Shown: piece by piece, positions 5,656 to 24,350 of the stretch
How the letters are laid out: each line of letters starts with the position of its first letter
Numbering within the stretch: position 1 is the first letter of the stretch
Origin: Planctomycetota bacterium
GTDB lineage: Bacteria > Planctomycetota > B15-G4
Assembly (NCBI GenBank): GCA_965248575.1
Contig: CBDFJQ010000002.1
Span: 1,367,574-1,431,573 of the forward strand
DNA length: 64,000 bases
Direction of reading: 5' to 3'
The notes under the pieces: generated by a model
What the model was told of the DNA's origin: nothing
The model's input: the letters and a program-made list of their open reading frames with translations, nothing else
The model's database searches: none
Program-made: the position numbers and the translations under genes

Positions 5656-5749
5656 GCTCCTGGCTCCATGTCGGGCTCAAGCGCCCGGTACGGGATGTTC
5701 GGGCGTCTCCGCCCGGTGTTGGATGGTGGTGTGTTGAACGGTGTACTGC

Positions 5750-6298
5750 TCAGCTGCCGCTTTCGAGCTTCTCGATGTGGCTCTGGATCGCACCAGCGAT
5801 CTTCGAACCACGTGCGGTGAACTGGCCGGAAAGAGTGGATGCCGGCGAAAGAATCTGTCCCAGAAGCTTGGACTGCATTTCTTGCTTCGTGGGCAACTTG
5901 GATAGGGCCTTGGCGCGGTCGGAGTCGAGAACTTCGCCCTCCATGAAACCGCCCTTGACTGCAGGCAGCTCGTTACCGCTTTCCTTGCGCCACTTCTCGA
6001 TGACGCGAGCAGCCGCGATGGCCGCCCCTTCCACTTCGACGTCCTCCAGCCCAAGAATCAGGGCTGAGGGGCCTTCGAAGAGGGATTCTATGCCTGACAG
6101 GCCCTGAGCTTCGAGCGCGCGCCGGGCCAATGAGCCCTTCACCACTTGCATGCTCAGCTGAGCCTCTTCGAGCAGGCCGCGGAACGAGTTGACGTCCTCG
6201 ACGGTCATGCCGACGGGTTGCACCAACAGGGCGTCGACGCCGCCAGACAGGCGGCGTTCGTACTCGCTGGCAATGGAAACATTGACGATGTTCGGCAT
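5750..6298 (-). CDS. rplJ: 50S ribosomal protein L10
   Basis: ORF 5750..6334; likely start MPNIVNVSIASEYERRL... (ATG complement 6296-6298, GGAG 8 nt upstream). It aligns to L10 (…MTVEDVNSFRGLLEEAQLSMQVVKGSLARRALE…). This start overlaps the rplA stop by 17 nt. Confidence 0.85.
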   Translation of the reverse strand: MPNIVNVSIASEYERRLSGGVDALLVQPVGMTVEDVNSFRGLLEEAQLSMQVVKGSLARRALEAQGLSGIESLFEGPSALILGLEDVEVEGAAIAAARVIEKWRKESGNELPAVKGGFMEGEVLDSDRAKALSKLPTKQEMQSKLLGQILSPASTLSGQFTARGSKIAGAIQSHIEKLESGS

Positions 6299-6311
6299 CA
6301 GTTCGCTCCGG

Positions 6312-7004
6312 TCAGCTCGCCAGGTCCACGGCAACGCCGGGGCCCATGGTCGTGGCTAGGAAGACCTTCTTGAGGTAGGTGCCCTTGGAAGAGGCGGGCT
6401 TCAGCGAGTTGACGGCTGCCACGAAGGCGCGCACGTTGGCCACGAGGTTTTCGTCGTCGAAGGAGCGCTTGCCCACAGCCGCGTGGATCGTCCCACCGCC
6501 ATCGGCGCGGAACTCCACCTTGCCGGCTGCGAACTCTCGCACTGCATTCTCGACGTTGGGCGTCACCGTGCCGGACTTCGGAGTCGGCATCTTGCCCTGG
6601 GGTCCGAGGACCTTACCGAGCTTGCCGACCTTGCCCATCATGTCGGGCGAAGCCACGGCTACGTCAAAATCGGTCCAGCCATCCGCGACCTTCTTGACGA
6701 GATCGTCGTCGCCCACTTCCACGGCGCCGGCCTCGGCCGCAGCCGCCTGCTTGGCAGGATCCTTCACGAACGCGATGACGCGCCGGGTGCGCCCCGTGCC
6801 GTGAGGCAGCGACACCGCGCCGCGCACTGACTGATCAGACTTGCGGGGGTCGATGCCGAGGTTGATGGCGATGTCGATCGATTCGTCGAAGCGCGTCTTC
6901 TCGGACGTCTTGAGAATCGCGATGCCATCGAGGAGCGGGTAGACGATGTCCTTGTCCACCTTGATCGCATTGGCCTTCTTGCGCTTGTTTATGTGCGTCG
7001 TCAT
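6312..7004 (-). CDS. rplA: 50S ribosomal protein L1
   Basis: MTTHINKRKKANAIKVDKDIVYPLLDGIAILK...DESIDIAINLGIDPRKSDQSVRGAVSLPHGTG is the canonical L1 sequence. Confidence 0.95.
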   Translation of the reverse strand: MTTHINKRKKANAIKVDKDIVYPLLDGIAILKTSEKTRFDESIDIAINLGIDPRKSDQSVRGAVSLPHGTGRTRRVIAFVKDPAKQAAAAEAGAVEVGDDDLVKKVADGWTDFDVAVASPDMMGKVGKLGKVLGPQGKMPTPKSGTVTPNVENAVREFAAGKVEFRADGGGTIHAAVGKRSFDDENLVANVRAFVAAVNSLKPASSKGTYLKKVFLATTMGPGVAVDLAS

Positions 7005-7030
7005 GTGTCTAGCGTCCTTTGTTCACCGGC

Positions 7031-7450
7031 TCAGCCGGAGACCTCGATACCCATGGAACGAGCCGTGCCTTCGACCATCCGGCACGCTGCGTCGATGTTG
7101 CGAGCGTTCAGGTCGGCCATCTTGGTCTCGGCGATTTCCTTCACCTGATCCTTCGTGACCTGCCCCACGATCTCGAGATGAGCATTGCCCTTGACGATGC
7201 CCGCTGCGCGCTTCAGGAGCACGGCTGCCGGGGGCGTCTTGAGCACGAAGCTGAACGAGCGATCCTTGTAGACGGTGATCTCGGCCGGAATGATCAAGCC
7301 CATCTGATCGCGGGTCGAGTCGTTGTACTCCTTCACGAACTGCCCGATGTTGACGCCGTGCTGACCCAGCGCGGGTCCAACAGGCGGAGCAGGCGTCGCC
7401 TGCCCGGCGGCCAGCTGGAGCTTGAGGACGGATTGGATTTCCTTGGCCAT
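7031..7450 (-). CDS. rplK: 50S ribosomal protein L11
   Basis: [43 protein letters not shown]... is the canonical L11 sequence. Confidence 0.95.
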
Positions 7451-7542
7451 CTGATGTCGTCTTGCTTGGGGTCGGTCGGTTTGTGTTCGAAGTCGTTGGT
7501 TCGGCCTGTCGGGATCGACGAGGCCGATTCAGGAACTGGTTC
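7451..7542 (-). promoter_or_regulatory. nusG-rplK intergenic leader (candidate L11-operon promoter/leader and possible L1 autoregulatory site)
   Basis: 92-nt untranslated gap upstream of rplK. By analogy to the E. coli L11 operon leader bound by L1. I recognised no specific structure. Confidence 0.25.
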
Positions 7543-8115
7543 TTAGGTCTGCTCGACCTTCCAGTACTCCAGTTCCACGGGCGTTTCACGTCCAAAGATG
7601 GTCACGATCACCCGGACCATTCCCTTCATCTCGTTCACTTCGTCCACCACGCCCGTGTAGGACTCGAACGGTCCGTCGTTGATCTTCACGCGATCACCGA
7701 GCTTGAAGTTGATCTTGAGTTGCGGCGTCTCCTCGGTATCGCGCATGCCATTCAGGATGCGCTCCACCTCGTGATCCGCCATGGGCACGGGCGCGCGGGA
7801 CACACCCACGAAGTCACCGATGCCCTGGGTCTCCCGGATCAGGAACCACACGTCTTCCGGGATCTGCCCCTCTTCATCCAGATACATCTCCACCATGATG
7901 TAGCCGGGGTAGAGCTTGCGCTGGATGACCTTCTTCCGACCGCCCTTCATCTCCGAGATGGTCTCGGTGGGAACGAGCACGCTCGGAACCCGCTCCTCAA
8001 GACCGACGGCCTTCAGCCGGCGCTCGAGTTTGTCGCGCATCTTCTTCTCGAGGTTACTGGCGACCCGGAGGACGAACCAGCGAGAGGAGGCGGCGTTGAA
8101 AGCGGAGGGTTCCAT
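7543..8115 (-). CDS. nusG: Transcription termination/antitermination factor NusG
   Basis: 190 aa with an NGN domain (RWFVLRVASNLEKKMRDKLE) and a C-terminal KOW (KINFKLGDRVKINDGPFESYTGVVDEVNEMKGMVRVIVTIFGRETPVELEYWKVE). Position secE-nusG-rplK. Confidence 0.9.
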   Translation of the reverse strand: MEPSAFNAASSRWFVLRVASNLEKKMRDKLERRLKAVGLEERVPSVLVPTETISEMKGGRKKVIQRKLYPGYIMVEMYLDEEGQIPEDVWFLIRETQGIGDFVGVSRAPVPMADHEVERILNGMRDTEETPQLKINFKLGDRVKINDGPFESYTGVVDEVNEMKGMVRVIVTIFGRETPVELEYWKVEQT

Positions 8116-8129
8116 CAGTCAGGAGCCGA

Positions 8130-8582
8130 TCAGGAGAGGATGTTCTTCGCCACGATCTCGTTGAGCAGCATGTCCATCCCGGCGAGGAGCACCGTGAAGA
8201 CAAGCATGACGACGAGAATGACGATGGAGGAGGTGAAGGTCTCGTTCCAGCTGGGCCAGGTGCACTTGCGCATCTCGGTTTCGGAGTCGATCAGGAGGTC
8301 CGCAACCTTCGGCCGTTCCAGGAACTTCATGAGCGTGGCCAGGCCGACGGAGGCAATGACGACGGCGAGAATCAGCGCATAGGTGAGTGGAACTCCCAGG
8401 ACCGGGAGGTTGTCCTCCATCAGCCGGGTCGCCAACCCACCGGGTGCGGCGGCTTCTGGATCGCCCCGGAAGCTGCCGAGGAAGTAGTACATCTCGTAGC
8501 ATCCGAAAAGCCACAGCGAGCCCAGCAGCCAAAGGGCTGTGGTCCGTGAATAGGTGCCTTGATCAGCTTTGAACTTGGCCAT
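8130..8582 (-). CDS. secE: Preprotein translocase subunit SecE (N-terminally extended, 3-TM form)
   Basis: 150 aa hydrophobic protein ending ...MLVFTVLLAGMDMLLNEIVAKNILS immediately upstream of nusG, after tRNA-Trp. This is the conserved position. Confidence 0.75.
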   Translation of the reverse strand: MAKFKADQGTYSRTTALWLLGSLWLFGCYEMYYFLGSFRGDPEAAAPGGLATRLMEDNLPVLGVPLTYALILAVVIASVGLATLMKFLERPKVADLLIDSETEMRKCTWPSWNETFTSSIVILVVMLVFTVLLAGMDMLLNEIVAKNILS

Positions 8583-13133: not shown

Positions 13134-13520
13134 CTATGGCTTGCCTGATTCCGAGCTGGAGTCGGAGACATCGGTCGGCGGCGGCGCCGGAACGCGCTCG
13201 CGCATCACGCGACCCACCTTGAACTTGACGACGCGCTTCGGCGGCACGTCCACCTTCTCGAGCGTGCGCGGGTTCTGCGCCCGTCGAGCTCGTCGGGTGC
13301 GCACCTCGAAGACCCCGAAGTCGCGGAATTCCAAGCGATTCCCGCGGCTGAGATCCGCAACGATCTCATCCAGGAACATCTGGATGATCGTCTTCGTGAC
13401 CACCTTGGTCTCCCCGGTCCGCTCGGCAATACGATTCACGAGGTCCTTCTTCGTGATCGTGATACCGCCAGGGACCAGCTCCCCACCAGCCGACGCAGAA
13501 GATTCAGGAGTGGAATCCAA
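13134..13520 (-). CDS. HU/IHF-family DNA-binding protein with N- and C-terminal extensions
   Basis: Core ITKKDLVNRIAERTGETKVVTKTIIQMFLDEIVADLSRGNRLEFRDFGVFEVRTRRARRAQNPRTLEKVDVPPKRVVKFKVGRVM has the IHF/HU fold signature (R-N-P-T-E). Both termini carry Ser/Pro-rich tails. Confidence 0.75.
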   Translation of the reverse strand: MDSTPESSASAGGELVPGGITITKKDLVNRIAERTGETKVVTKTIIQMFLDEIVADLSRGNRLEFRDFGVFEVRTRRARRAQNPRTLEKVDVPPKRVVKFKVGRVMRERVPAPPPTDVSDSSSESGKP

Positions 13521-13685
13521 GAGGCTCCTTCATGGTTCCCCGAACGAAACGACCCGAGCAGGCATGCACGGTGTTCGAGCGTCTGACGCGATCAAATCCC
13601 GGCGCACCAAGCCCGCGCTCACGAGCGCAAAGCGGTCTGATGCGCGCTCACTCTAACAGTGTTCAAACCCTTGTCAAGAAAGCGG

Positions 13686-14159
13686 TTAGGACCCTGACTC
13701 CGCGCCGTGCTGGAAGCCTGGCCGCGAGTCCAGGTGCAAGGTGAACGGCCCGTCGTTGCACAGCGAGAGCTGCATCATTGCGCCGAAGCGTCCCTGAGCG
13801 ACCGGAACCCCGCGCGACTGGAGCTCCCTCTCAAACGCCGCCAACAGTTCCTGGGCCCGCTCTGGAGACGCGGCCTTCGTGAAGCCCGGCCTCCGTCCTT
13901 TCCTCCACTCAGCTGCCAGGGTGAATTGCGACACGACGAGAGCCGCCCCACCCACATCCATCAGTGACCGCTGGCTGCGCCCATCCTCATCCGGGAAGAC
14001 GCGCAGGTCGACGATCTTGTTGGCCAACCAGAGCACCTCTTCGCGTGTGTCTCCTTGGACGGCGCACACGAGAAGGCACAGCCCGGGACCGATCTCACCC
14101 ACGACCTCATCGCCCACGCGCACCGCGGCTTCGCGCACCCGTTGAGCGACGACGATCAT
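13686..14159 (-). CDS. dtd: D-aminoacyl-tRNA deacylase
   Basis: MIVVAQRVREAAVRV...SQFTLAAEW...GRRPGFT...FGAMMQLSLCNDGPFTLHLDS matches DTD family motifs (SQFTL, NDGPVT-like). Confidence 0.85.
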   Translation of the reverse strand: MIVVAQRVREAAVRVGDEVVGEIGPGLCLLVCAVQGDTREEVLWLANKIVDLRVFPDEDGRSQRSLMDVGGAALVVSQFTLAAEWRKGRRPGFTKAASPERAQELLAAFERELQSRGVPVAQGRFGAMMQLSLCNDGPFTLHLDSRPGFQHGAESGS

Positions 14160-15190
14160 GGAGCGCGCATCGCCCGACTCGCTCCGGCCATCCCCACGGC
14201 TTCCCGGGCCGCCCCCACCACCTCCGCCGCCACGGAACGCGCGCGGCCGGCGGCTGTCACCAGCACGTCCTCCACGAAGTCGGGATCCGCTTCCAGCGCA
14301 GCCCTCCGCTCGCGCGCTGCACTGAAGGTGGCATCGATGGCTGCAAGCAGTTCCTTCTTGGCGTCCCCATAGCCGTAGCCCCCCGCCCGCAGACGCTTCG
14401 CCATGCTCTCCGTCTCCTCAGCTGAGGCCACGAGCTTGTAGAGCTGCCACACCGTGCAGGCCTCGGGGTCCTTCACATCGTCGACGCCGAGACTGTCCGT
14501 GACGACAGACATGACCGACTTCTTGAGGGGCTTCCCCGTGGCGAAGATTCCGATGGTGTTGCCGTAGCTCTTGGACATCTTCTGTCCATCCGACCCAGGC
14601 ACGACCGCCCCCGATTCGGACAGCCGCCCTTCGGGGCGCCGGAACACCTCGCATTTGTAGGCGGCATGAAAAGCCTCCGCCATGTCCTGGGTCATCTCGA
14701 TGTGCTGGATCTGGTCCTTGCCCACCGGCACCACGTCCGAGTGGTAGGCCAGGATGTCCGCAGCCATGAGCACGGGATACAGGAACAGCCCTGCCCGGGG
14801 CCGGATCCCCTTGGCCACCTTGTCCTTGTACGAGGTCGCTCGCTCGAGCAGCCCCATCCCCGTCACCGTGGACAGGAGCCACGTCAGCTCGCAGACCTCC
14901 GGCACATCCGACTGCCGGAACAGGAGCGCCTTGGCGGGGTCCAGGCCCAGAGCCAGGTAGTCCAGGGCCACGTCCTTCACGGCGACGGCAAAGGCCGCAC
15001 GATCCTGGAAGGTGGTGAGGGCGTGATAGTCGGCAATGAAATAGAAGCCGTCTCCCTGGTCCTGCAGCGAGATGTGCTGCTGGATCGCCCCGAAGTAGTT
15101 GCCGAGGTGCAGCTTCCCGCTGGGCTGGATGCCGGACAGGATGCGGGTGGTGTTGGCGGGCACGAGGCTCTCCGGCCAGGGAGGAAACAC
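14156..15190 (-). CDS. trpS: Tryptophan--tRNA ligase
   Basis: ILSGIQPSGKLHLGNYFGAI (HIGH-type motif) and KMSKS (DGQKMSKSYGN). 344 aa. The start overlaps the dtd start region with ATGA coupling at 14156-14159. Confidence 0.9.
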   Translation of the reverse strand: MFPPWPESLVPANTTRILSGIQPSGKLHLGNYFGAIQQHISLQDQGDGFYFIADYHALTTFQDRAAFAVAVKDVALDYLALGLDPAKALLFRQSDVPEVCELTWLLSTVTGMGLLERATSYKDKVAKGIRPRAGLFLYPVLMAADILAYHSDVVPVGKDQIQHIEMTQDMAEAFHAAYKCEVFRRPEGRLSESGAVVPGSDGQKMSKSYGNTIGIFATGKPLKKSVMSVVTDSLGVDDVKDPEACTVWQLYKLVASAEETESMAKRLRAGGYGYGDAKKELLAAIDATFSAARERRAALEADPDFVEDVLVTAAGRARSVAAEVVGAAREAVGMAGASRAMRAP

Positions 15191-15347
15191 GGACGAATCG
15201 GCGAGGAAACCGTGGGGAAATCCTCAGGGCTGTCCAGCGGCGCGGAGCCGTCGGGCAGTGCCGACCTAGAACGGTACACCTCGTAGAATCGAAGTCTCAA
15301 GACACGAAGCGCTTGAGACCGGCGCTCCGCCTTGGGACGGTTGTCCC

Positions 15348-16844
15348 GTGCGGACCGGGAGACATCGACAATTCTGGTGGCACCCGGCTGGCGCGGGTGC
15401 CCTTTTCATGCTCTTGCTGGGCGGGTGTTCTTCCCTGCCTGAGCTGGACTGGAATCCGCTCATCCGCATCGAGCACACGCCGGATGGATCCGTCGAGATC
15501 GAGGCCCTGGGCCCGCTGATCGACATCCGTGAGGGCCCCGAAGGGACCTCCCACGCCCTGCGCCCGCTCTACCAGCACAAGGCCAACTTCGGCAAGCCGA
15601 TCACCGATTTCCTGGCGCCCTTCGGCCGGCGCTTCGTCACGGCCGACGCGACCCGCTGGCGCTTCTGGCCCCTCGTCTGGTCGGGTGAAACGCGCGACAG
15701 TCCCGAAGGTGCCGAGTGGGATGCGGTCCTGCTGCCCCTGATCTTCACCGGCGGCGGCCCGCGCCAGGGCGATGGCTACTTTGCCCTCTTCCCGTTGGGC
15801 GGGCGCATTCGCAACATCTTCGGCCTCGAGACCTTCGATTTCTTCCTCTGGCCCTTCTTCATGCGCACGCGCATGGACATCGACGAGCAATCCACCTCGT
15901 GGACGGTCTTGCTGGGCGGCGGCTGGACCACCGGCGGCCCCCGCGACGACAGCTGGCGGGCCCTGCCCTTCTACCGGCACCGCATCGTGCGCCATGTCGA
16001 CGGGACCCTGCGCACCGATCAACGCAGCGCGCTCTGGCCCATCTTCACTTGGGGGCTGGACCACGGCGACAGCGCCGACCCTTCCATGCGCTTTTCCGCC
16101 TGGCCGCTGTTCGGCCGCGAAGCGGGGGAGAGCTGGTCTCGAACCACCGTGCTGTGGCCCTTCTTCCGCGTGAACCGCGAGACAGAAGAGGCCGGCGGTG
16201 ACTACCTCTACGACCTTCCGTGGCCGCTGGTACGCGTCTCCAAGGACGAGAAGAAGTCGGTCACGCGCGTCTTCCCCTTCTACAGCCACCAGGTGAGTGA
16301 GGACTTGGACTCCCTCACGCTGCTCTACCTGTATTGGGACCGGGCCAGCACCGGCCGGACCTCCGACGAGGGCTGGCCGCCGCGGAACTACGAACGCCAG
16401 GACACCTACCTGTTTCCCTTCTGGCACAACTCTCACCGCACCGTGTCCGGGCGCGAGGGGGCCGACGTCCAACATCAACTTTGGCCGCTCTTTCACCGCG
16501 ACGCCGACGCACGCGGACGTCGGGATGCCGCCTTCCTTTCCCTGGTACCGACGCGTCACTTCGAATTCCTGCGCCCCGTCGACGAGCTCTACTCGTTCTT
16601 GTGGACCCTCTGGCGTTCGCGCTCGGACGGCACCAGCCACGAGACGCGCTTCCTCTTCGACACGGTTCTTTATCGCGAGTCCCCGGAAGGTCTCAGAATC
16701 TCGGTTCCCTTCCTCTATTCTCGGCGCCCAGACTCCGCAGGCCTCGACAAGCACCAGATCCTCTGGGGCCTGCTGGGCGCGGGAACGGACGCAGACGGTC
16801 TAGCCGAACTCAGCTTGGCGGGGTGGACGCTTTGGGCACGCTAA
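15348..16844 (+). CDS. Tryptophan-rich repeat lipoprotein of unknown function (signal peptide plus lipobox LLGGC)
   Basis: N-terminus MRTGRHRQFWWHPAGAGALFMLLLGGCSS is a lipoprotein signal. The body carries about eight degenerate copies of a (L/F)WP(L/F)(F/V) motif spaced 25-30 aa apart. Strong GC3 coding bias on this strand. Its 3' end overlaps the mlaE start. Confidence 0.6.
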   Translation: MRTGRHRQFWWHPAGAGALFMLLLGGCSSLPELDWNPLIRIEHTPDGSVEIEALGPLIDIREGPEGTSHALRPLYQHKANFGKPITDFLAPFGRRFVTADATRWRFWPLVWSGETRDSPEGAEWDAVLLPLIFTGGGPRQGDGYFALFPLGGRIRNIFGLETFDFFLWPFFMRTRMDIDEQSTSWTVLLGGGWTTGGPRDDSWRALPFYRHRIVRHVDGTLRTDQRSALWPIFTWGLDHGDSADPSMRFSAWPLFGREAGESWSRTTVLWPFFRVNRETEEAGGDYLYDLPWPLVRVSKDEKKSVTRVFPFYSHQVSEDLDSLTLLYLYWDRASTGRTSDEGWPPRNYERQDTYLFPFWHNSHRTVSGREGADVQHQLWPLFHRDADARGRRDAAFLSLVPTRHFEFLRPVDELYSFLWTLWRSRSDGTSHETRFLFDTVLYRESPEGLRISVPFLYSRRPDSAGLDKHQILWGLLGAGTDADGLAELSLAGWTLWAR

Positions 16845-17644
16845 AGACAACTCTCGAGTCTCGCGGCCGCGCGATTCGGGAGACGGTCACCGAAGCGGGC
16901 TTCGCCGTCACGATCCTGCTGCGCAGTGCCCAGCGCATCGTGCCCGACCTGCGGCACCGCTCGCGCTTCACCCTGGACCAGCTGGCGGTCTGTGGCATCT
17001 CGCCCCTGCCCGTGGTCTGCGTCGTGGGTCTCTTCACCGGCATGCTGCTCGCGCTGCAGGTCGGCATGGAGCTCTCGAAGGTCGGTCAGTCGGAAGCCAT
17101 CGCCAACATGCTCGGCGTGATCCTGTTCCGCGAGATGGGCCCCTTCATGACGTCCATGATCCTCACGGCCAGCGTCGGCAGCGCCATGGCGGCCGAGATC
17201 GGGACCATGCGCGTCTCCGAGGAGATCGACGCGCTGGAGTGCATGTCCGTCGACCCCATCTCCTTCCTGGTCATGCCGCGCATCATCGCCATGGCCATCA
17301 TGACGCCCATCCTCACCTTCATCGGCTGCATCCTGGGCTGCATCGGCGGCGGCATCGTGGCCAAGACGCAGCTGTCCGTCTCCGCCTCCGTCTACCTGCG
17401 CAACCTGCTCAGCTCGCTCGAGGCGGAGCCCAACAGCCTGGGCCCGTTCCCCGAGGAGATCTACACGGGGCTGATCAAGTCCGTGGTCTTCGGCGTGCTC
17501 GTAGCGACCATCAGCTGTGCGGCCGGACTCAAGGCAAGCGGTGGCGCCATCGGAGTGGGCCGCTGTGTCCGCACCGCCGTCGTGCGCTGCTTCCTGATGC
17601 TGATCATCATCGGCTACTACATCTCCTGGATGTTCTTCAAGTGA
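16823..17644 (+). CDS. mlaE: Phospholipid ABC transporter permease MlaE family
   Basis: In-frame GTG at 16823 begins VDALGTLKTTLESRGRAIRETVTEAGFAVTILLRSAQRI.... The 273-aa multi-TM protein has the MlaE/YrbE signature ...EMGPFMTSMILTASVGSAMAAEIGTMRVSEEIDALE.... The upstream part of ORF 16334..17644 overlaps the lipoprotein gene and is not coding. Confidence 0.8.
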   Translation: MDALGTLKTTLESRGRAIRETVTEAGFAVTILLRSAQRIVPDLRHRSRFTLDQLAVCGISPLPVVCVVGLFTGMLLALQVGMELSKVGQSEAIANMLGVILFREMGPFMTSMILTASVGSAMAAEIGTMRVSEEIDALECMSVDPISFLVMPRIIAMAIMTPILTFIGCILGCIGGGIVAKTQLSVSASVYLRNLLSSLEAEPNSLGPFPEEIYTGLIKSVVFGVLVATISCAAGLKASGGAIGVGRCVRTAVVRCFLMLIIIGYYISWMFFK

Positions 17645-18393
17645 TCCAACTCGAGAACGTTCACAAGTCCTTTGGCGATCTGCACATCTTGCGCGGCGTC
17701 GACCTCACCCTCGAAAGTGGCGAGACGCTCGTGGTCCTGGGCCTCTCGGGCACGGGCAAGAGCGTCACCTTGAAGCACATGGTGGGCTTGCTGAAACCCG
17801 ATTCGGGGCGCATCACCGTGGACGGCGTGGACGTACCCACCGCGAACGGTGAGCAGCTGCGGGATATCCGCCGCAAGGTCGCCTACCTCTTCCAGACGGG
17901 TGCGCTCGTGAACTGGATGAGCGTCCGCGACAACGTGTCCCTGCCGCTGGTTGAGAAGCGCTCGCTGCCCCCTGGCGAGATCCGTGAGCGCGTAGACGAA
18001 TCGCTGCAGTCGCTCGACATGTTGGAGGCGGCCGAGCGCATGCCGGCCGAGATCTCCGGCGGCATGCGCAAGCGAGCGGCCCTGGCCAGGGTGCTCGTCG
18101 CCCAACCCAAGGCCATCCTCTACGACGAACCCACCGCGGGCCTCGACCCCATCATGGCGCGCACCGTGGGCCACCTCATCCGGGACGTCCAATCGTCCGG
18201 TGATCGCACCGCCATGGTGGTCACGCACGACCTCGAACTCGCCTTCGCGGTCGCCACCCGCATCGGGCTCCACTTCGAGGGCCAGCTCATCGAGCTCGCG
18301 CCCCCGGACGAATTCAAGCAGAGCAGTCACCCCATCATCCGCGCCTTCCTCGACGGCAGCACCACCGTCGAGGGGGAGGGACTCAAGAAGTGA
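17641..18393 (+). CDS. mlaF: Phospholipid ABC transporter ATP-binding protein MlaF family
   Basis: GTG at 17641 overlapping the mlaE stop (GTGA). VIQLENVHKSFGDLHILRGVDLTLESGETLVVLGLSGTGKSV (Walker A), LSGGMRKRAALARVL (signature), ILYDEPTAGLD (Walker B). Confidence 0.85.
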   Translation: MIQLENVHKSFGDLHILRGVDLTLESGETLVVLGLSGTGKSVTLKHMVGLLKPDSGRITVDGVDVPTANGEQLRDIRRKVAYLFQTGALVNWMSVRDNVSLPLVEKRSLPPGEIRERVDESLQSLDMLEAAERMPAEISGGMRKRAALARVLVAQPKAILYDEPTAGLDPIMARTVGHLIRDVQSSGDRTAMVVTHDLELAFAVATRIGLHFEGQLIELAPPDEFKQSSHPIIRAFLDGSTTVEGEGLKK

Positions 18394-19604
18394 AGAACCG
18401 CAACAACGACGCAATCCTGGGCATCGTGTTCTTTGGCGCCTTGATCGGCCTGGGCGTCATGACGATCGTGCTCTCAGACTTTGCCCTCGGCGCGGAGACC
18501 TTCCGCGTGAAGGTCTACGCCACCGACATCGGCTACCTGCGAGCAGGCGACCCTATCCTTCTGCATGGCATGGCCGCCGGCAAGGTGGAGGAGATCAACC
18601 GGCTCCCGCAGCCGCTGCTCATCGCCGAGCCCCACGACTCCAGCGGCGCGAGCCCAGGCGAGGCCAACTGCACGGTGGAGGTTCAGCTGAAGATGGAGGT
18701 GGACCCCTATCTCTACCTGCGCCAGGACTACGACATCCTGATCGAGGACCTGGGCCTGCTGGGCGGCAAGATGGTGCGCATGGTCGTGGGGAGAGCAGAC
18801 GTCTTCATCCCCAAAGGCCAACAGCTCTACGCCTTGGCCCCCCCGTCGGCCGTCCAGGCTGCCAGCGAGATCCTCGAAGAGAACCGGGCCGACATCCGGG
18901 ACGCCATCGCCCAGATCAACGAGTTTGCCGAGAAGGCGAACCGGGGTGAGGGCACCCTGGGCCTGCTCATGAATGACGCCGAGACGCGGGCGCGCATCGA
19001 GGGCATCATCGACGACATCACCACGGTGGGCGATAGCCTGACCAACGGCGAGGGGACCATGGGCAAGCTGCTCAACGACAGCGCACCCTTCGACGACTTG
19101 AAGGTGGCCATGGCCGATGCTCGCAGCTTCACTGACCGCATCCGCAAGGGTGAAGGCACCGTGGGCAAGATGATCCAGGACGACACCATCTACGAGGACA
19201 TCCGTTCGCTGACAGAAGAGGCGCGGACAGGGCTCTCAGGCATCTGGGATGGCGAAGGAACCCTGGGCAAGCTGATCAACGACGACGCCCTCTACGCACA
19301 GGCCGAAGAGTTCATGGCGGATCTGCTCGAGATTGCCGAGAAGGTCTCCGACGGCGAGGGCACGCTCGGCCGTCTGCTCAATGACGCCCAGCTCTACGAT
19401 GACGTGGTGGCCTTCGTGAACGATGCGAGGGTCGTGTTCAGCGATCTGCGCGATGGCAAGGGGCTTGTGGCCGCGCTCATCAACGACGAAGAGCTACTCG
19501 ACGACTTCCGCTCCATCCTGAGCCAGGTGCTTGGGGCCATCGAGGACGCCCGGGAAACGACGCCCGTCACCAGCCTCGGATCCTTCCTGTTCGGCACCTT
19601 CTAG
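18390..19604 (+). CDS. mlaD: MCE-domain protein MlaD family with a long C-terminal tandem-repeat region
   Basis: GTG start overlapping the mlaF stop. N-terminal TM (AILGIVFFGALIGLGVMTIVL) then an MCE domain. C-terminal 185 aa consists of about six ~30-35-aa repeats centred on G-E-G-T-[LMV]-G-[KRL]-L-[LIM]-N/Q-D. Confidence 0.8.
   Translation: MKNRNNDAILGIVFFGALIGLGVMTIVLSDFALGAETFRVKVYATDIGYLRAGDPILLHGMAAGKVEEINRLPQPLLIAEPHDSSGASPGEANCTVEVQLKMEVDPYLYLRQDYDILIEDLGLLGGKMVRMVVGRADVFIPKGQQLYALAPPSAVQAASEILEENRADIRDAIAQINEFAEKANRGEGTLGLLMNDAETRARIEGIIDDITTVGDSLTNGEGTMGKLLNDSAPFDDLKVAMADARSFTDRIRKGEGTVGKMIQDDTIYEDIRSLTEEARTGLSGIWDGEGTLGKLINDDALYAQAEEFMADLLEIAEKVSDGEGTLGRLLNDAQLYDDVVAFVNDARVVFSDLRDGKGLVAALINDEELLDDFRSILSQVLGAIEDARETTPVTSLGSFLFGTF
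18945..19510 (+). repeat. In-frame coding tandem repeats (6 copies, about 90-105 nt each) inside mlaD
   Basis: Protein-level repeats: NRGEGTLGLLMNDAE / TNGEGTMGKLLNDSAPFDD / RKGEGTVGKMIQDDTIYED / WDGEGTLGKLINDDALYAQ / SDGEGTLGRLLNDAQLYDD / RDGKGLVAALINDEELLDD. Confidence 0.7.
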
Positions 19605-19608
19605 CCGG

Positions 19609-21033
19609 TCAGGCCTCGCCAGCGGTGGACAGCAAGCCGATGTAGCGTCGGAAACGCTGCAGCAGCAATTGCGGCCGGCGCAGCTCGCGCATGATGCGCG
19701 AGGGGCGCATGTAGAAGCTCCGGTAGGCCCGGCGGATGGCTGCGGACACCTGCTCGCTGCTCATGACCTTGGCCACACCCACAGGCGTGGTGCCCGTGAA
19801 CTTGTCGAAGTCGAACTCGTCCTCCTGCTCGGCCCGGCTCTCCTTGTAGAGCTTTGTGTCCGGGTACGGCGTCACCACCGTGAACTGGACGGTGTCGGGG
19901 TCGAGGTAGATCGCCAGGTCGATGGTCTCACGTGCCATCGCCGGGGTCTCCTCCGGGAAGCCGATCATGAAGAAGCCGCGCGTGGCAATGCCATGCTTCT
20001 TACAGGACTCCATGACGACCTTGGCGTGCTCGTGGCTCTTGATCTTGCCGCGGCTGTACTTCTTCTGCAGCCCTTCGTTGCCGGCCTCGATGCCGAAGGA
20101 GACCGAGACGCAGCCGCCGCGCGCCATGGCGGCGATGAGCTCGTCGTCCATGGTCTTGATGGCCGTCTCACACTGCCAGAGCACGCCGAGCTTTGCCTGT
20201 TCCAGCATGGCGCTCAGCTCGATGACGCGGTCGCGGTCGTAGGCAAACAAGGGGTCCCGGAACACGATGTTGGTCACACCTTGCTCGTGAACGATTTGTT
20301 TCAGCTCGTCGAACACATTGACGGCTGATCGGCCACGCCACGGAATGCCCTGCGCAACCACGTACCCGCAGTACGTGCAGTTGATGGGGCAACCCCGGGA
20401 GGACTGCACCGTCTGGATGGGCCCCTCCATCGTGGGGATGCGGTACGGCTCCACGGGCAACAGTGCGCGCGAAGGGAAGGGCAAGGCATCCAAGGCGTCA
20501 CCGCGCAACAGCGGGCGGTCCGGGTTGCTGCTGGCCCCGCTCCCACGACGCACCGTCAGGCCATCCACGGCCAGGGGGTCCTCCCCCGCCTCAAGAGCCT
20601 TGAGCATCTGCTCAATGGTCAGCTCCGGCTCGCCGCGCACCACCGCGTCCACCTGCGAACCCGCCATGGCCAGGTCCGGCACCTTGCTGCCCTGGCTGCC
20701 CGTGATGCAGACCACGCTGTCCGGGGACACCTCTTTGATGCGATCGACCAACGCCAGATCCAGCGAGATGGTCGCGCTGGACGTCGCCAGGACCACCAAC
20801 GGCGAGGGGTGGGCCGCCAGTGCCTCCAGCACCACGCTGTCGTCCGATCCGTCCGCCTCGGCGTCCACGACGCTGGCCTGGTGACCCGCCCGCTCCACGA
20901 TGGCCGCCACGTAGAGCAGGTCCAGGGGCGGATAACAGAGCCCTTCACCCACGACCATGCCAAAACCGCCCATGAGCCCTCGGCTCACGCGCTGACTAGG
21001 AGGTGGTGGTGGATTGACGAGCAAGACGTGCAT
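19609..21033 (-). CDS. Cobalamin-binding (class B) radical SAM enzyme
   Basis: N-terminal B12-binding Rossmann-like domain (MHVLLVNPPPP...LLYVAAIVERAGHQASVVD...), then the radical SAM core with the CxxxCxxC cluster motif (SSRGCPINCTYCG) and GGCVSVSFGIE. 474 aa. Confidence 0.85.
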   Translation of the reverse strand: MHVLLVNPPPPPSQRVSRGLMGGFGMVVGEGLCYPPLDLLYVAAIVERAGHQASVVDAEADGSDDSVVLEALAAHPSPLVVLATSSATISLDLALVDRIKEVSPDSVVCITGSQGSKVPDLAMAGSQVDAVVRGEPELTIEQMLKALEAGEDPLAVDGLTVRRGSGASSNPDRPLLRGDALDALPFPSRALLPVEPYRIPTMEGPIQTVQSSRGCPINCTYCGYVVAQGIPWRGRSAVNVFDELKQIVHEQGVTNIVFRDPLFAYDRDRVIELSAMLEQAKLGVLWQCETAIKTMDDELIAAMARGGCVSVSFGIEAGNEGLQKKYSRGKIKSHEHAKVVMESCKKHGIATRGFFMIGFPEETPAMARETIDLAIYLDPDTVQFTVVTPYPDTKLYKESRAEQEDEFDFDKFTGTTPVGVAKVMSSEQVSAAIRRAYRSFYMRPSRIMRELRRPQLLLQRFRRYIGLLSTAGEA

Positions 21034-21200: not shown

Positions 21201-24200
21201 TTGGACGGAGAGGAGCCGGGCCAGCAAAGCGATCTGCTGGACGACTCCGCGCAAGCCACCTTGAACGACTCACATCGGGCCTCAGCGAGGCCCTTTTTCC
21301 ATTTCGCCGGCGCAGCGACGCTTCTGACCCTCGTGGCCCTGGCCGCCGTGGTCGTGGAGCCCAGCGAGGCCCCGACGTCCTCGTCCGCAGGCATCAACTC
21401 GAGCGCAGCCTTGGCACTTGGCTCTGCAGGCGCAGCCTCAGAACGACCTGGGCTGGAGTTGCCCTCGGACGGTGACCAGGCTCGCAACACCCGGCTGGAG
21501 TTGTTTGACCGGAAGCCTAGCCAAAGCGTGCCGCTGCTCGTGGACGACCCTCAGCTTGGCGCCGAGCTGACGGGCAAGGAACAGAAGAAGCTGAACAAGC
21601 TGGCCAAGAAGTGGGCCAAGACAGGCGGAAAGATCGCCAAGAAGGAAGCGCTCGTGGTTCAGCGCATTGGCGAACTCGCCGCCGCTCAGGCCGCCCTCGT
21701 CGCAGCCAATGCCCTCCCGGACGGAACGCCTGAAGAGCTGACCCAGAAGGCGAAGGCCATCAAGAAGGCCGAGAAGAAGCTGCTCAAGGCACAAAAGAAG
21801 CTGCTCAAGGCACAGACCAAGTTGGTGGGCCTCAACTCCAAGCTCACGGCCTTTGTCGCGGCCATCGATGAGGTCGACCCTGGCTACTTCGAGAGCCAGA
21901 CGGGCCCCCCACCGGAGCCCGATCCGGACCCGACGGGCGAGCCGGACCCCGACCCCGCCACCAACCCCGGACCCGACTTCCAAGGCGCCGGCGTGCCCAC
22001 CCTGCCCGTCTTCGTGCAGGAAGCCCGGCCGAGCAACGGCACGGGGGTCACCCGCGCTGGAGACATCGCCACCTTCGGCATCCCATTCTCCGAGGGAGAC
22101 GTCGGCATCAAGTCGGGCCGCCCCGCCTTGGCCGTGTCCGGTGCGGACTCGTTTCAGTTCCGCACGCTGAAACTCTGGCCCGACGGCAGCGTCCAGTGGG
22201 CGCTCTGCGACCTGCAGACAGATGTCACCGCCGGCGTCATCAGCCAAGGTCTCGTGGTGCTGGGTGGCGACGGCCAATCGGTCCAAGCCAACCTCGCTGA
22301 CGAGAACGGCAGCTCAATCCAGATCGACACCGGCCCGCTGCAGGCGACAGTCCTCAAGACCACGTTCAACTTCCTCGACAGCGTCACCGTCGACGGGACG
22401 CTGCTGGTCGACGGCCCCAGCGGCCGTGGCCTCACGGGGCGGGCACCCAACGGCGACCTGCTGGTCCCAGCCCTGACGACTGTCACGCTGGAAGAGAATG
22501 GCCCCACCCGCGCCATGATCCGCGTGGACGGCACGATGGTGGACCCCGGCGCCGTGAAGTTTGTCGACTTCACCTTGCGCATCGTGGCACGCCGCGGCTC
22601 GCGCGACCTGGAAACGCAGCTCACGGTTCGCAACGCCAACATCGCTCGCCCCCAACACGCGGTGATCGAGTCCCTGGAGCTCTCCGTCGAGAGTCTGCTC
22701 GGGAGCAGTTCTAGCTCGGTGCGCATGGCCGGGCACGCTGGTGAGCACACCGGCATCCTGCTGTCGTCCCTGGACGCACACCTCTACCTGGCCCACACGG
22801 CCACCAACCAGGCGGGGCTGGGCGGGGCGCAGTATGTCCCCCACCTCCCCAACGTCAGCTCGGGGAGCAAGACGTTCACGCAGGAAGGCTACGAGGCCGC
22901 CATCGCCGGCTCCACGCTGCAGTCCCTGGGTAACGAGAACCTCTACCCCGAGCACGGATGGATCGACCTCACTGGCCCGAACGGCGGCGTGACGGTCGGC
23001 ATCCGACAGGCCCCGTACATGTACCCGGTCTCGCTCGAGGCGTACGGTTCGGGCAAGGTCACGGCGGGCATGTTCAGCTCACACAACCCGGCCGACTTCA
23101 CCTTCAGCTGGCAGCAGCACGAAAGCCGTTCGGCGGTGTTCTCGTTCCACACCGGAGTCGCAGCTGACCCCGAGGCTGTCGTGCGCCGGCTGGACTACCC
23201 CGTCGTAGGCCGCTTCGCGGACTACAAGGACTACGACCGCGCGGGCGTCTTTCCGTACCGCCTGCTCACCAAGCAAGAGCAGGAGGAAGCCCTCTCGCTG
23301 ATGGGCATCAACCACAACATCAGCGTGGGCAACAACACCTTCCTCGTCACCAAGTACCTCTACAAGGGGACGACCGGCGGCACGAACAACCACGCGGGCA
23401 TCGAGCTGCACCTCGGCGGCGATTGGTTGCGGCATGGCACAGGCGGCCAATACCTCTCCGCAATGAATCTGGCCCTCTACAAGTCGGAGTGGCAAGTCGC
23501 TCGTTCGGACAACTTCGAGGACGAAGATGATCCGGGCGCCAGCAACGACCAGGTCCCCCACAGCGTGGGCTTCCAGAGTGACGACGAACATCGCTACCGC
23601 GATGGCATGATCCTGGCGTACCACCTCACGGGTGACCGACGCCTGCGCGAAGCCCTCTACGACGAGGCCGAGGTCCTGCAGAGCGTGTCACTCTGGCCCC
23701 ATGAGCGCTCGATGTACCAGACGCTGCGTGCCATGGGCCTGGTGGCGGAGTTCACGGGCGACCCAGCCCTGATCCCCACGCTGCGCGCACGCCTTCAGTA
23801 CATCACGCAACCCACGGTCAACGTCAACACGGCGAGCAGCGGTTGGGGTTGGGAAACCAGTCAGGACGTGGGCCAACGCCGCTACTTCGTCAACAGCTCG
23901 GACAACAAGAACGAGAAGCCGCCGGGGGAGAACTTCCAGTGCCGGGGCTTCATCTCCGCCAGCCTCGGGCCGCTCGGCTACTTCCACGCCGCACGCTTCT
24001 TCGCCTCCAATGACCCTGACGGCATGGCAGCCAGGGGCCGCATGCGCGACCTCTCCTACTGGGCGCGGGAAGAAATCTTCAGCAACGACCCCAACCCGGT
24101 GAATCGCCGCCTCATGTACTCGTACGCCGTGACGCAGCAACAGGTGACGAACTGGGAGAACGTCGACTTCCATCCGATCTTGTTGGGCATGGCGGAGAGC

Positions 24201-24350
24201 TACCTGGACACCACCGACATCGTCTATCTGCTGCGCGGCGCCGACCAGCTCGAATCCGCGCAGGCGCACGGCGATCTCTACCGCTGGAACACGCGCATGG
24301 ACTGCCAGCACTTCCTCGCCATCTACCGCGACTGGGCCCTCTCCCTCTAG
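21201..24350 (+). CDS. Large (1049 aa) membrane-anchored or secreted protein of unknown function (possible polysaccharide-modifying enzyme)
   Basis: N-terminal hydrophobic anchor (FFHFAGAATLLTLVALAAVVV), a Lys-rich coiled-coil (KKLNKLAKKWAKTGGKIAKKEA...KKAEKKLLKAQKKLLKAQTKLVGL), an acidic Pro-rich linker (PPPEPDPDPTGEPDPDPATNPGPD), then an ~800-aa globular region. GC3 bias is consistent with coding. The exact start is uncertain. Confidence 0.55.
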   Translation: MDGEEPGQQSDLLDDSAQATLNDSHRASARPFFHFAGAATLLTLVALAAVVVEPSEAPTSSSAGINSSAALALGSAGAASERPGLELPSDGDQARNTRLELFDRKPSQSVPLLVDDPQLGAELTGKEQKKLNKLAKKWAKTGGKIAKKEALVVQRIGELAAAQAALVAANALPDGTPEELTQKAKAIKKAEKKLLKAQKKLLKAQTKLVGLNSKLTAFVAAIDEVDPGYFESQTGPPPEPDPDPTGEPDPDPATNPGPDFQGAGVPTLPVFVQEARPSNGTGVTRAGDIATFGIPFSEGDVGIKSGRPALAVSGADSFQFRTLKLWPDGSVQWALCDLQTDVTAGVISQGLVVLGGDGQSVQANLADENGSSIQIDTGPLQATVLKTTFNFLDSVTVDGTLLVDGPSGRGLTGRAPNGDLLVPALTTVTLEENGPTRAMIRVDGTMVDPGAVKFVDFTLRIVARRGSRDLETQLTVRNANIARPQHAVIESLELSVESLLGSSSSSVRMAGHAGEHTGILLSSLDAHLYLAHTATNQAGLGGAQYVPHLPNVSSGSKTFTQEGYEAAIAGSTLQSLGNENLYPEHGWIDLTGPNGGVTVGIRQAPYMYPVSLEAYGSGKVTAGMFSSHNPADFTFSWQQHESRSAVFSFHTGVAADPEAVVRRLDYPVVGRFADYKDYDRAGVFPYRLLTKQEQEEALSLMGINHNISVGNNTFLVTKYLYKGTTGGTNNHAGIELHLGGDWLRHGTGGQYLSAMNLALYKSEWQVARSDNFEDEDDPGASNDQVPHSVGFQSDDEHRYRDGMILAYHLTGDRRLREALYDEAEVLQSVSLWPHERSMYQTLRAMGLVAEFTGDPALIPTLRARLQYITQPTVNVNTASSGWGWETSQDVGQRRYFVNSSDNKNEKPPGENFQCRGFISASLGPLGYFHAARFFASNDPDGMAARGRMRDLSYWAREEIFSNDPNPVNRRLMYSYAVTQQQVTNWENVDFHPILLGMAESYLDTTDIVYLLRGADQLESAQAHGDLYRWNTRMDCQHFLAIYRDWALSL

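Follow-up and report, generated by a model that had tools for sequence, protein, structure and literature searches.

A four-gene operon in a 64,000-nucleotide (nt) stretch of a Planctomycetota genome (GenBank assembly GCA_965248575.1, contig CBDFJQ010000002.1, positions 1,367,574 to 1,431,573; this whole stretch is hereafter termed the window) was found to encode an MlaEFD-type transporter together with a fourth, exported protein. The latter, here termed X along with its gene, is the product of 498 amino acids (aa) of the open reading frame (ORF) at 15348-16844. Comparison of loci from at least five phyla provides strong evidence that X and mlaEFD form a functional unit. The kind of transporter, an MCE lipid transporter, is known, and its fourth component is non-homologous to those described, with X representing a new family and a new fold. 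X very probably belongs to the transporter as a dedicated component, regardless of where exactly it is placed, and there is about an even chance that it acts at the outer end of the MlaD needle, in a position analogous but not homologous to that of PqiC and PA3214.

The association was examined in 90 loci fetched with two clade-specific alignments (76 species-representative genomes and 14 metagenomes) and in eight contexts looked up individually, and the first 95 loci were scored by tblastn with MlaE, MlaF, and MlaD queries. X lay directly upstream of mlaE (order X-E-F-D) in 77 of the 95 loci and directly downstream of mlaD (order E-F-D-X) in nine, from Syntrophaceae/Thermodesulfobacteriota, while one further locus (L073) showed the latter order with larger gaps, and eight were uninformative due to a contig end beside X. 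X therefore adjoins mlaEFD in 87/87 informative loci, with no informative locus lacking the association, and the individually annotated contexts agree with this adjacency. The loci came from Planctomycetota, Verrucomicrobiota (Opitutaceae, Limisphaerales), Desulfuromonadales/Geobacteraceae, Thermodesulfobacteriota, Syntrophaceae, and Methylomirabilales/NC10, to which a Pontiella locus added Kiritimatiellota. Because the adjacency is kept across phyla at 24-30% identity and in two gene orders, it argues for function rather than mere inheritance. An earlier note on this DNA, made from the sequence alone, had named absence of the gene from the mla neighbourhood in related genomes, or membership in a known unrelated lipoprotein family, as findings that would speak against such a link, and neither was observed.

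In the window, an MlaE permease, an ABC ATPase, and an MCE protein are encoded in one operon, as is characteristic of MCE/Mla-type ABC transporters (Table 1). Flanked by trpS (14156-15190), a divergent gene upstream, and a B12 radical-SAM gene (19609-21033), a convergent one downstream, the operon comprises X-mlaE-mlaF-mlaD with X as the first of four genes, as the earlier note had proposed. The frames of X and mlaE share 13 nt with TTG 16832 as the mlaE start, or 22 nt with GTG 16823, and TTG 16832 is favoured by a start codon that 8 of 9 relatives retain at the -12 position. The mlaE/mlaF and mlaF/mlaD junctions are each a GTGA overlap. The claim that the stop codon of X overlaps a GTG start of mlaE was thus right as to the overlapping frames, but the stop codon itself overlaps no start codon. 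Likewise, the designation as an mla operon holds for the MlaE, MlaF, and MlaD genes (PF02405, PF00005, and PF02470), but not in the sense of a canonical Escherichia coli-type Mla system, as the transporter is of the needle type. A scan for the sigma-70 consensus revealed no promoter match in the operon region, including the intergenic region 15191-15347.

Table 1. Positions of the X-mlaE-mlaF-mlaD operon and its parts in the window.
Feature	Position	Strand	Remarks and basis
Divergent intergenic region trpS(-)/X(+)	15191..15347	.	Presumed promoter region of the four-gene operon; gene layout
Gene X	15348..16844	+	GTG start, TAA stop 16842-16844; 498 aa; predicted to be exported, Trp-rich (5.2% W), with all-beta hairpin repeats
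Predicted lipoprotein signal peptide (aa 1-26) and lipobox Cys27	15348..15428	+	Cys27 codon 15426-15428; L-G-G-C
Predicted main beta-hairpin repeat array (aa 33-405)	15444..16562	+	About 38 short strands; every second turn is a tight (aromatic/Leu)-Pro-(Leu/Phe) turn, with a spacing of about 20 aa; DSSP of AF2 model
Predicted sole helix of mature X (aa 406-418)	16563..16601	+	AF2 model
Predicted C-terminal beta region (aa 422-497)	16611..16838	+	Nine strands, fewer Pro-turn motifs; AF2 model and motif positions
mlaE-like permease gene	16832..17644	+	Probable TTG start; PF02405 9.2e-65; TIGR00056 at cutoff
mlaF-like ABC ATPase gene	17641..18393	+	PF00005 7.7e-32
Long MlaD/MCE protein gene	18390..19604	+	404 aa; PF02470 2.1e-06; PF28544 Helical_needle; AF2; Foldseek
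Conserved MlaD C-terminal tail (aa 391-404)	19560..19601	+	TPVTSLGSFLFGTF; may dock X; conserved in the X-linked MlaDs of different phyla

MCE proteins are hexamers whose C-terminal helices build a needle or tube. According to the secondary structure of an AlphaFold2 (AF2) model, the MlaD of the window consists of a transmembrane helix (aa 3-30), the MCE domain (aa 38-149), a helical needle (aa 154-390), and the hydrophobic tail. The needle, of about 240 residues, is made up of six units of about 34 aa starting GEGTLGKLLNDD, and the protein carries the Pfam domain PF28544 (Helical_needle). Foldseek analysis of the model recovered the Mce1 subunits 8fef/8fed over the full length as best matches, followed by MlaD (Foldseek probability 1.00 for both). 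The neighbouring transporter is thus of the needle-bearing type, like Mce1 and PA3211-3214, and a continuous conduit rather than a shuttle is to be expected from the Helical_needle domain and the full-length alignment with Mce1 subunits. Across phyla, the tail of X-linked MlaDs follows the consensus ...P-[VIL]-[ST]-x-[LF]-G-S-x-[LF]-F-G-[TA]-F, ending in FG(T/A)F, which can also be written as ...(E/D)x(G/T/A)P(L/I/V)(S/T)x(L/F)G..G(T/A)(L/F)F-COOH (e.g., ...DTGPLSALGVVLGTLF, ...ETTPVTSLGSFLFGTF, and ...DQGPLSIIGILFNGLF). The hydrophobic tail is also found in most of the 120 best MlaD homologues, and its predicted local distance difference test (pLDDT) score is <50 in the AF2 monomer model. By analogy with the C-terminal peptides of PA3213 and PqiB, the tail is a candidate for docking X (PMC13631591).

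A reverse search starting from MlaD yielded two groups of loci. Where MlaD ends in the hydrophobic tail (L096 from Pontiella sulfatireligans, L098, L101, and L102), an X-family gene was present directly upstream of mlaE in 4/4 cases (hmmsearch E 6e-87 to 3e-116), versus 0/3 where a fused PF27164 domain of about 190 aa takes the place of the tail (P0372, P0314, and P0315), with no X within 7 kb in any frame. In this small sample, the pattern is as expected if X supplies in trans what the fused C-terminal domain supplies in cis.

Variation in gene content was also observed among the loci. In the MlaDs at L097 (7001-8698), L099 (7001-8785), and L100 (4058-5839), the GEGTLGKL needle repeats are kept and the PF27164 domain (Aq_493_lipo, about 190 aa) replaces the tail; the operons of these three loci contain no X, and in each of them mlaE is immediately preceded by a CTP_transf_like (cytidylyltransferase-type) gene. 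In 45 Desulfuromonadales-type loci (e.g., L001, 6819-7790), the gene next to X on its upstream side specifies a TPR protein of about 320 aa and is preceded in 13 of the 45 by a gene for a 269-aa protein without a Pfam match, and the TPR gene, with or without the latter, may be a clade-specific operon extension. L102 harbors two tandem MlaD paralogues (5702-6931 and 7001-8197) after X-mlaE-mlaF, with the Helical_needle match and an FNAF tail in the second only, which hints at a hetero-oligomeric MCE ring. In L044 and L046 (Geobacter sp. H2geo and a relative), mlaD comes straight after X-mlaE, and tblastn revealed no gene for an mlaF-like ATPase in between; for L049, the same search gave no mlaF and no mlaD downstream of mlaE. 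In two Verrucomicrobiota loci, a gene for an HpnN/BstA-like RND protein (hopanoid/sterol transporter-like) lies directly upstream of X-mlaEFD (L063, 3059-5800; L070, 2924-5596); it was not seen in other clades, and it scored 586 bits against TIGR03480, under the cutoff of 752. A hopanoid link as a general feature of the X operons was rejected because this RND gene occurs upstream of X in just these two loci. Such a link through the B12 radical-SAM enzyme adjacent to the operon was also rejected, as the enzyme reached 198 bits against the HpnJ cutoff of 577 and is not HpnJ.

The coding frame and the N-terminus of X are supported by its relatives. An opposite-strand ORF (15297-16754) overlies the gene and is a shadow ORF of a type common in 65% GC DNA, and the plus frame is preferred because its product has homologues with 24-77% identity and constant length. 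The N-terminus, MRTGRHRQFWWHPAGAGALFMLLLGG followed by C27SS, combines a basic n-region with a hydrophobic h-region and an L-G-G-C lipobox (LLGG before C27), and MRTGRHRQ...AGAGALFMLLLGG with C27 conforms to the bacterial lipoprotein pattern [LVI][ASTVIG][GAS]C preceded by n- and h-regions. Residues 13-25 form a low-confidence helix in the AF2 model (pLDDT <60 over residues 1-30), as expected for a cleaved signal. A Cys occupies the equivalent site in 41/41 close relatives bearing the LPELD motif, in which the +2 residue is S, A, R, H, T, G, Q, or V, and Asp in none of the 41. The description of X as a 498-aa lipoprotein with a lipobox is thereby confirmed for the clade of the window only. The public annotation (P0001, 478 aa) begins at ATG 15408, 20 codons after GTG 15348, which leaves just MLLLGG ahead of the Cys with the n- and h-regions of the signal lost. 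Since the 498-aa relatives P0002-P0004 have an MRT(G/A)R... N-terminus in common and the 478-aa form is without a functional signal peptide, the annotated start appears too late and GTG 15348 the better one. Between these two codons, within the signal-peptide coding region, the window also contains a GC-rich 8-bp stem-loop (GGCACCCG...CGGGTGCC) followed by CTTTTC (15379-15401), which was scored as terminator-like by a consensus scan.

In other lineages, X has a different N-terminus. The members from Desulfuromonadales, Verrucomicrobiota, and Kiritimatiellota carry plain Sec signals without the Cys, with AxA-type sites in those of Desulfuromonas, Pontiella, and L063, and among 69 distant members, 15 lack a Cys within their first 50 aa. 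Judged from these signals, lipidation is probably confined to the clade of the window and not a family trait, and export to the periplasm is the predicted conserved feature.

The X family is large and without annotation. A homology search returned 186 matches, and a profile search of 1.84 billion cluster representatives detected 2999 proteins (50%-identity clusters) at E<=1e-3 and 1165 at E<=1e-30, of which the best 150 are nearly all 460-540 aa long and aligned end to end. The source names of the homologues are all 'hypothetical protein', including the RefSeq protein WP_066727291.1 (Desulfuromonas sp. DDH964) and a Desulfuromonas carbonis protein. Neither the single sequence (E<=0.01 for Pfam and NCBIfam) nor a 45-member profile matched any entry of Pfam, NCBIfam, or the PDB sequences. 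No match to MlaA/VacJ (PF04333) was found for X at E<=0.01 or for any of the 45 members at E<=1, in line with the earlier note, which had seen no resemblance to that lipoprotein. The MlaC profile (PF05494) matched neither X nor the 45 members, and no MlaC structure was among the top 50 Foldseek matches listed; mature X is an all-beta protein of about 470 aa, versus about 200 aa of mixed alpha/beta structure for MlaC. For PqiC, PA3214, and XCC0632, there was no Pfam or PDB sequence match, and 8Q2C, 2IQI, and 6OSX were not among the top 50 Foldseek matches listed. The MORN (PF02493) and YD-Rhs (PF05593) profiles had no match at E<=1 in any of the 45 members, and no match was detected between X and the PF27164 domain fused to some MlaDs with all filters off. 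No description of the family was found in the full-text literature searched, the coverage of which is incomplete, so that absence is not proven.

Sequence statistics and modelling both point to a beta-hairpin repeat. The eight repeat strings quoted in the earlier note are all present in X, but its count of about eight repeats was too low, as 17-18 units can be recognized. The motif [WFLY]P[LFIVW] occurs 13 times in mature X, compared with 2.5 +/- 1.5 expected, and 0 of 20,000 composition-preserving shuffles reached 13; WP[LFIV] occurs seven times, against 0.41 in the same number of shuffles, none of which reached seven. By AF2 secondary structure, 17-18 prolines (P37, 56, 73, 91, 108, 130, 149, 169, 207, 231, 253, 271, 293, 310, 357, 380, (401), and 454) fall in a gap of 3-4 residues between consecutive strands, at distances of 17-24 aa, with two double spacings in which a degenerate unit intervenes. 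Given these positions and spacings, the predicted repeat unit is a beta-hairpin of about 20 aa with the closing turn (aromatic/Leu)-Pro-(Leu/Phe). Across the 45 homologues, 11 alignment columns are invariant, nine of which are turn prolines. The family is on average composed of 5.1% Trp, 15.8% aromatic residues, 7.4% Pro, and 10.4% Arg.

The AF2 model of X, built on the 45 diverse homologues with secondary structure assigned by DSSP, has a mean pLDDT of 90.9 and a predicted template-modelling score (pTM) of 0.76, and is poor solely at residues 1-30. It comprises about 47 short beta-strands, mostly of 5-8 residues, besides the one helix. As the motif recurs at every second turn of an up-down meander, the aromatic-Pro turns should all lie along one sheet edge. 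A pTM this high is an indirect hint that the chain forms a compact body and not a loose ribbon. Among the top 50 Foldseek matches listed from the PDB, the best E-values belonged to IFT/WD40 subunits, teneurin YD shells, Rhs cores, OspA, and the TCP10 G-box, with query-normalised template-modelling (TM) scores of 0.09-0.19 and a root-mean-square deviation (rmsd) of 10-37 Å, and the best matches in BFVD were MORN-repeat proteins (TM 0.15-0.20). The E-values of 5.6e-5 for a MORN protein in BFVD and 1.8e-4 for a teneurin YD shell reflect local similarity only (TM 0.12-0.20, rmsd >30 Å). The local architecture of the model is thus an antiparallel hairpin meander, and its predicted global fold has no solved counterpart in the PDB or BFVD with a TM above about 0.2. 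MORN, YD/Rhs shells, OspA, and TCP10 G-box sheets, the best local Foldseek matches, are antiparallel meanders of short hairpins with a periodicity of about 20 aa and resemble the X model locally; unlike X with its aromatic-Pro tight turn, MORN and YD proteins bear a Gly-rich MORN motif or a YD motif, and they show no profile match and a global TM of <=0.2.

Among known transporters, the PA3211-3214/Mpc type appears by analogy to come closest to the X system in the way it works. The needles of PqiABC and PA3211-3214 insert with their tip into a ring formed by eight copies of a PqiC-like outer-membrane lipoprotein, and the C-terminal peptides of the MCE protein dock in a hydrophobic groove of that lipoprotein, where mutations abolish binding (PMC13631591). 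PA3211-PA3214 of Pseudomonas aeruginosa and MpcEFDA of Brucella share with the X system a four-gene operon for an MlaE permease, an ABC ATPase, a single-MCE needle protein, and an extra exported protein; this fourth protein is a PqiC-like outer-membrane lipoprotein, and X is a predicted lipoprotein in the clade of the window. The E-F-D-X order of one clade places X in the slot of the lipoprotein gene of Brucella mpcEFDA (PMC12436622), and PA3213 and PqiB end in a short conserved tail, as do the X-linked MlaDs (PMC13631591). PqiC-like proteins are defined as always encoded with a needle MCE system, and X adjoins mlaEFD in the 87 informative loci, with PF28544 on the MlaD of the window, which constitutes a functional analogy, not membership. 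X nevertheless differs from the PqiC-like proteins, which are smaller and show no sequence or fold likeness to it, in that it is all-beta, usually precedes mlaE, and is unlipidated in many lineages.

Other systems are less similar. Grasekamp et al. (2023) described MlaEFD with a long MlaD as the widespread form, and the sole one in most phyla, and reported that MlaABC occur mainly in Proteobacteria (PMC10665443). Veillonella parvula and other 'MlaEFD-only' systems have the MlaEFD core and long MlaD in common with the X system and likewise lack MlaA, MlaB, and MlaC, but they were described as three-component (PMC10665443), whereas here a fourth, separately encoded protein accompanies barrel-less tail-type MlaDs. 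The MlaDs of the PVC group are without the C-terminal outer-membrane beta-barrel, single C-terminal strands of some barrel-less MlaDs were predicted to assemble into a tiny six-strand barrel, and it was asked whether non-homologous proteins replace the missing MlaA and MlaC (PMC10665443). The E. coli MlaFEDB-MlaC-MlaA system is similar in that X is encoded with homologues of MlaE, MlaF, and MlaD and that MlaA is also an outer-membrane lipoprotein; it is different in that E. coli MlaD is short and served by a soluble shuttle, while MlaD here is a long needle, and in that mlaA lies at a separate locus (PMC10665443), while X is in the operon and matches neither PF04333 nor PF05494. The mycobacterial Mce1 complex (8fef/8fed) is the best full-length structural match of the window MlaD, covering transmembrane helix, MCE domain, and needle, but it is built of six different MCE subunits and accessory membrane proteins, unlike the X system. 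We know of nothing X-like in the Mce1 system.

Taken with this analogy, the above results are consistent with the following model. X would be exported to the periplasm as a fourth subunit beside the MlaE permease, the MlaF ATPase, and the long MlaD, anchored by a lipid on Cys27 in the organism of the window and its Planctomycetota relatives and plainly secreted in other phyla, where it may be held by other means, conceivably an aromatic/Arg-rich rim. It would fold as a compact all-beta array of about 23 beta-hairpins with the Trp/Phe-Pro motifs along one sheet edge, sit at the far end of the hexameric MlaD needle, next to the outer membrane, and engage the hydrophobic C-terminal tails of MlaD, thereby coupling the needle lumen to the outer membrane. 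X may thus do the same job as the PqiC-like lipoprotein ring does for PqiB and PA3213, and maybe the fused C-terminal domain in other long MlaDs. The distal position is suggested by the fact that tail-type and fused-domain MlaDs, which are complementary with respect to X, differ at the C-terminus. The reading of X as a fourth subunit is also supported by the overlapping frames at all three window junctions and the conserved overlapping start of mlaE. The lack of Asp at +2 in all 41 close relatives supports sorting to the outer membrane. The physical interaction of X with MlaD, its location at the outer membrane, and any role in lipid transfer are inferred from gene context and from the analogy with the PqiC-like systems. 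It is conceivable, although the chance seems somewhat short of even, that X founds an undescribed class of outer-end component for MCE lipid bridges, which caps or receives the needle of barrel-less long MlaDs via their tails and replaces MlaA/MlaC, PqiC-like rings, or fused domains in the PVC group, Desulfuromonadales/Thermodesulfobacteriota, and NC10.

Several points weigh against placing X at the outer membrane. The role as an outer-membrane lipid-handling partner is read from genomic context, and the complementary distribution with the fused domain spans just seven loci, for which PF27164 may or may not be the published outer-membrane beta-barrel of long MlaDs. It speaks for X as the missing partner that no MlaA, MlaC, or PqiC-like protein was detected among the 32 window proteins scanned with Pfam, but these cover 1-40.6 kb, and the window is just 64 kb of the 5.29-Mb genome. 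Furthermore, the lipid anchor is absent in many members, so that attachment to the outer membrane by this means is not family-wide and another mechanism is needed there, and the +2 lipoprotein sorting rule stems from E. coli and may not hold in Planctomycetota.

These points leave room for other placements of X. It could be a periplasmic lipid-binding carrier or substrate receptor that, like MlaC, hands a lipid or another hydrophobic substrate to the MlaD ring, considering that many members are predicted to be soluble, secreted, and without a lipid anchor, that the aromatic-rich protein could line a hydrophobic site, and that no MlaC is encoded nearby; this is nonetheless unlikely, since MlaD is a long needle like those of Mce1 and PqiB, an architecture that works without shuttles in known cases, since the anchored form in the clade of the window fits poorly with free diffusion, and since X is more than twice the size of MlaC with no common fold or sequence. 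Alternatively, X could be an accessory close to the inner membrane (serving in assembly, stabilisation, or regulation from the periplasmic side of MlaE or of the MCE ring), similar in role to the mycobacterial Mce-associated accessory proteins. The tight co-translation with mlaE, the usual first place in the operon, and a lipid anchor that could sit in the inner membrane if sorting rules differ would agree with this, but X is complementary in distribution to MlaDs whose sole difference lies in the distal C-terminus, which indicates a place at the needle's far end, and X follows mlaD rather than preceding mlaE in one clade, which together make such an accessory improbable.

The structural model bears on two further candidates, both rejected. 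An integral outer-membrane beta-barrel, in the role of chloroplast TGD4 or the C-terminal barrel of Veillonella MlaD, would accord with an all-beta protein bearing a Sec or lipoprotein signal and with low-probability Foldseek matches to LptD, VDAC, and the FimD usher. It is very improbable, as the TM to these barrels is 0.09-0.16, most strands, with 5-6 residues, fall short of a membrane span (about 9 or more residues), the stretches between the aromatics are highly polar (10% Arg and 7.4% Asp in the window X), and its end, ...AGWTLWAR, lacks a terminal aromatic beta-signal. An LptD/beta-jellyroll reading was likewise rejected (Foldseek TM <=0.2). The earlier note had suggested a beta-propeller or beta-sheet repeat and called for structure prediction. 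The all-beta repeat was borne out by the AF2 model, but no propeller fold was found with structure prediction and Foldseek. Short repeated strands and matches to propeller-containing IFT subunits, Sro7, Hsv2, and SCAP would suit a propeller lipoprotein, to which very little credence can be given in view of the superposition of those matches (TM 0.09-0.21, rmsd 15-30 Å), the two-strand unit of about 20 aa instead of a four-strand blade of about 40-50 aa, the abundance of propellers in the PDB with none superposing, and the absence of any propeller Pfam match apart from PF23727 at E=0.36 in 1/45 members. That X merely happens to adjoin mlaEFD and has a function unrelated to the transporter can practically be dismissed, given the 87 informative loci in several phyla and two gene orders and the four more loci found from MlaD.

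The placement of X at the outer end of the needle, if true, would mean that the supposed three-component 'ancestral' MlaEFD systems of these phyla are four-component machines. How phospholipids pass between the two membranes of diderm bacteria is understood mainly from a few models among the Proteobacteria, and the X family, being large, of constant length, without Pfam or NCBIfam annotation, and nearly always found beside tail-type mlaEFD, is a concrete candidate for the missing outer part of MlaEFD systems. Members are also known from culture, namely from Pontiella sulfatireligans, Desulfuromonas sp. DDH964, Desulfuromonas carbonis, and an Opitutaceae isolate, which makes the hypothesis directly testable. 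In addition, the family offers a confidently predicted beta-hairpin-repeat fold without a solved counterpart.

Beyond the operon, genes for HU and a D-Tyr-tRNA deacylase lie on the opposite strand upstream of X in the window (13134-15190) and are both also found upstream of X in L101 (249-2707), which is consistent with L101 being a related Planctomycetota genome. Downstream of the operon, the window contains a cluster of cell-envelope polysaccharide type (19609-40595), which includes two B12-binding radical-SAM enzymes (the adjacent one and a second at 31177-32634), a 1049-aa PcRGLX-like protein (21201-24350), a methyltransferase, several GT1/GT4 glycosyltransferases, a Wzx-like flippase, a polysaccharide deacetylase, and a sulfatase.

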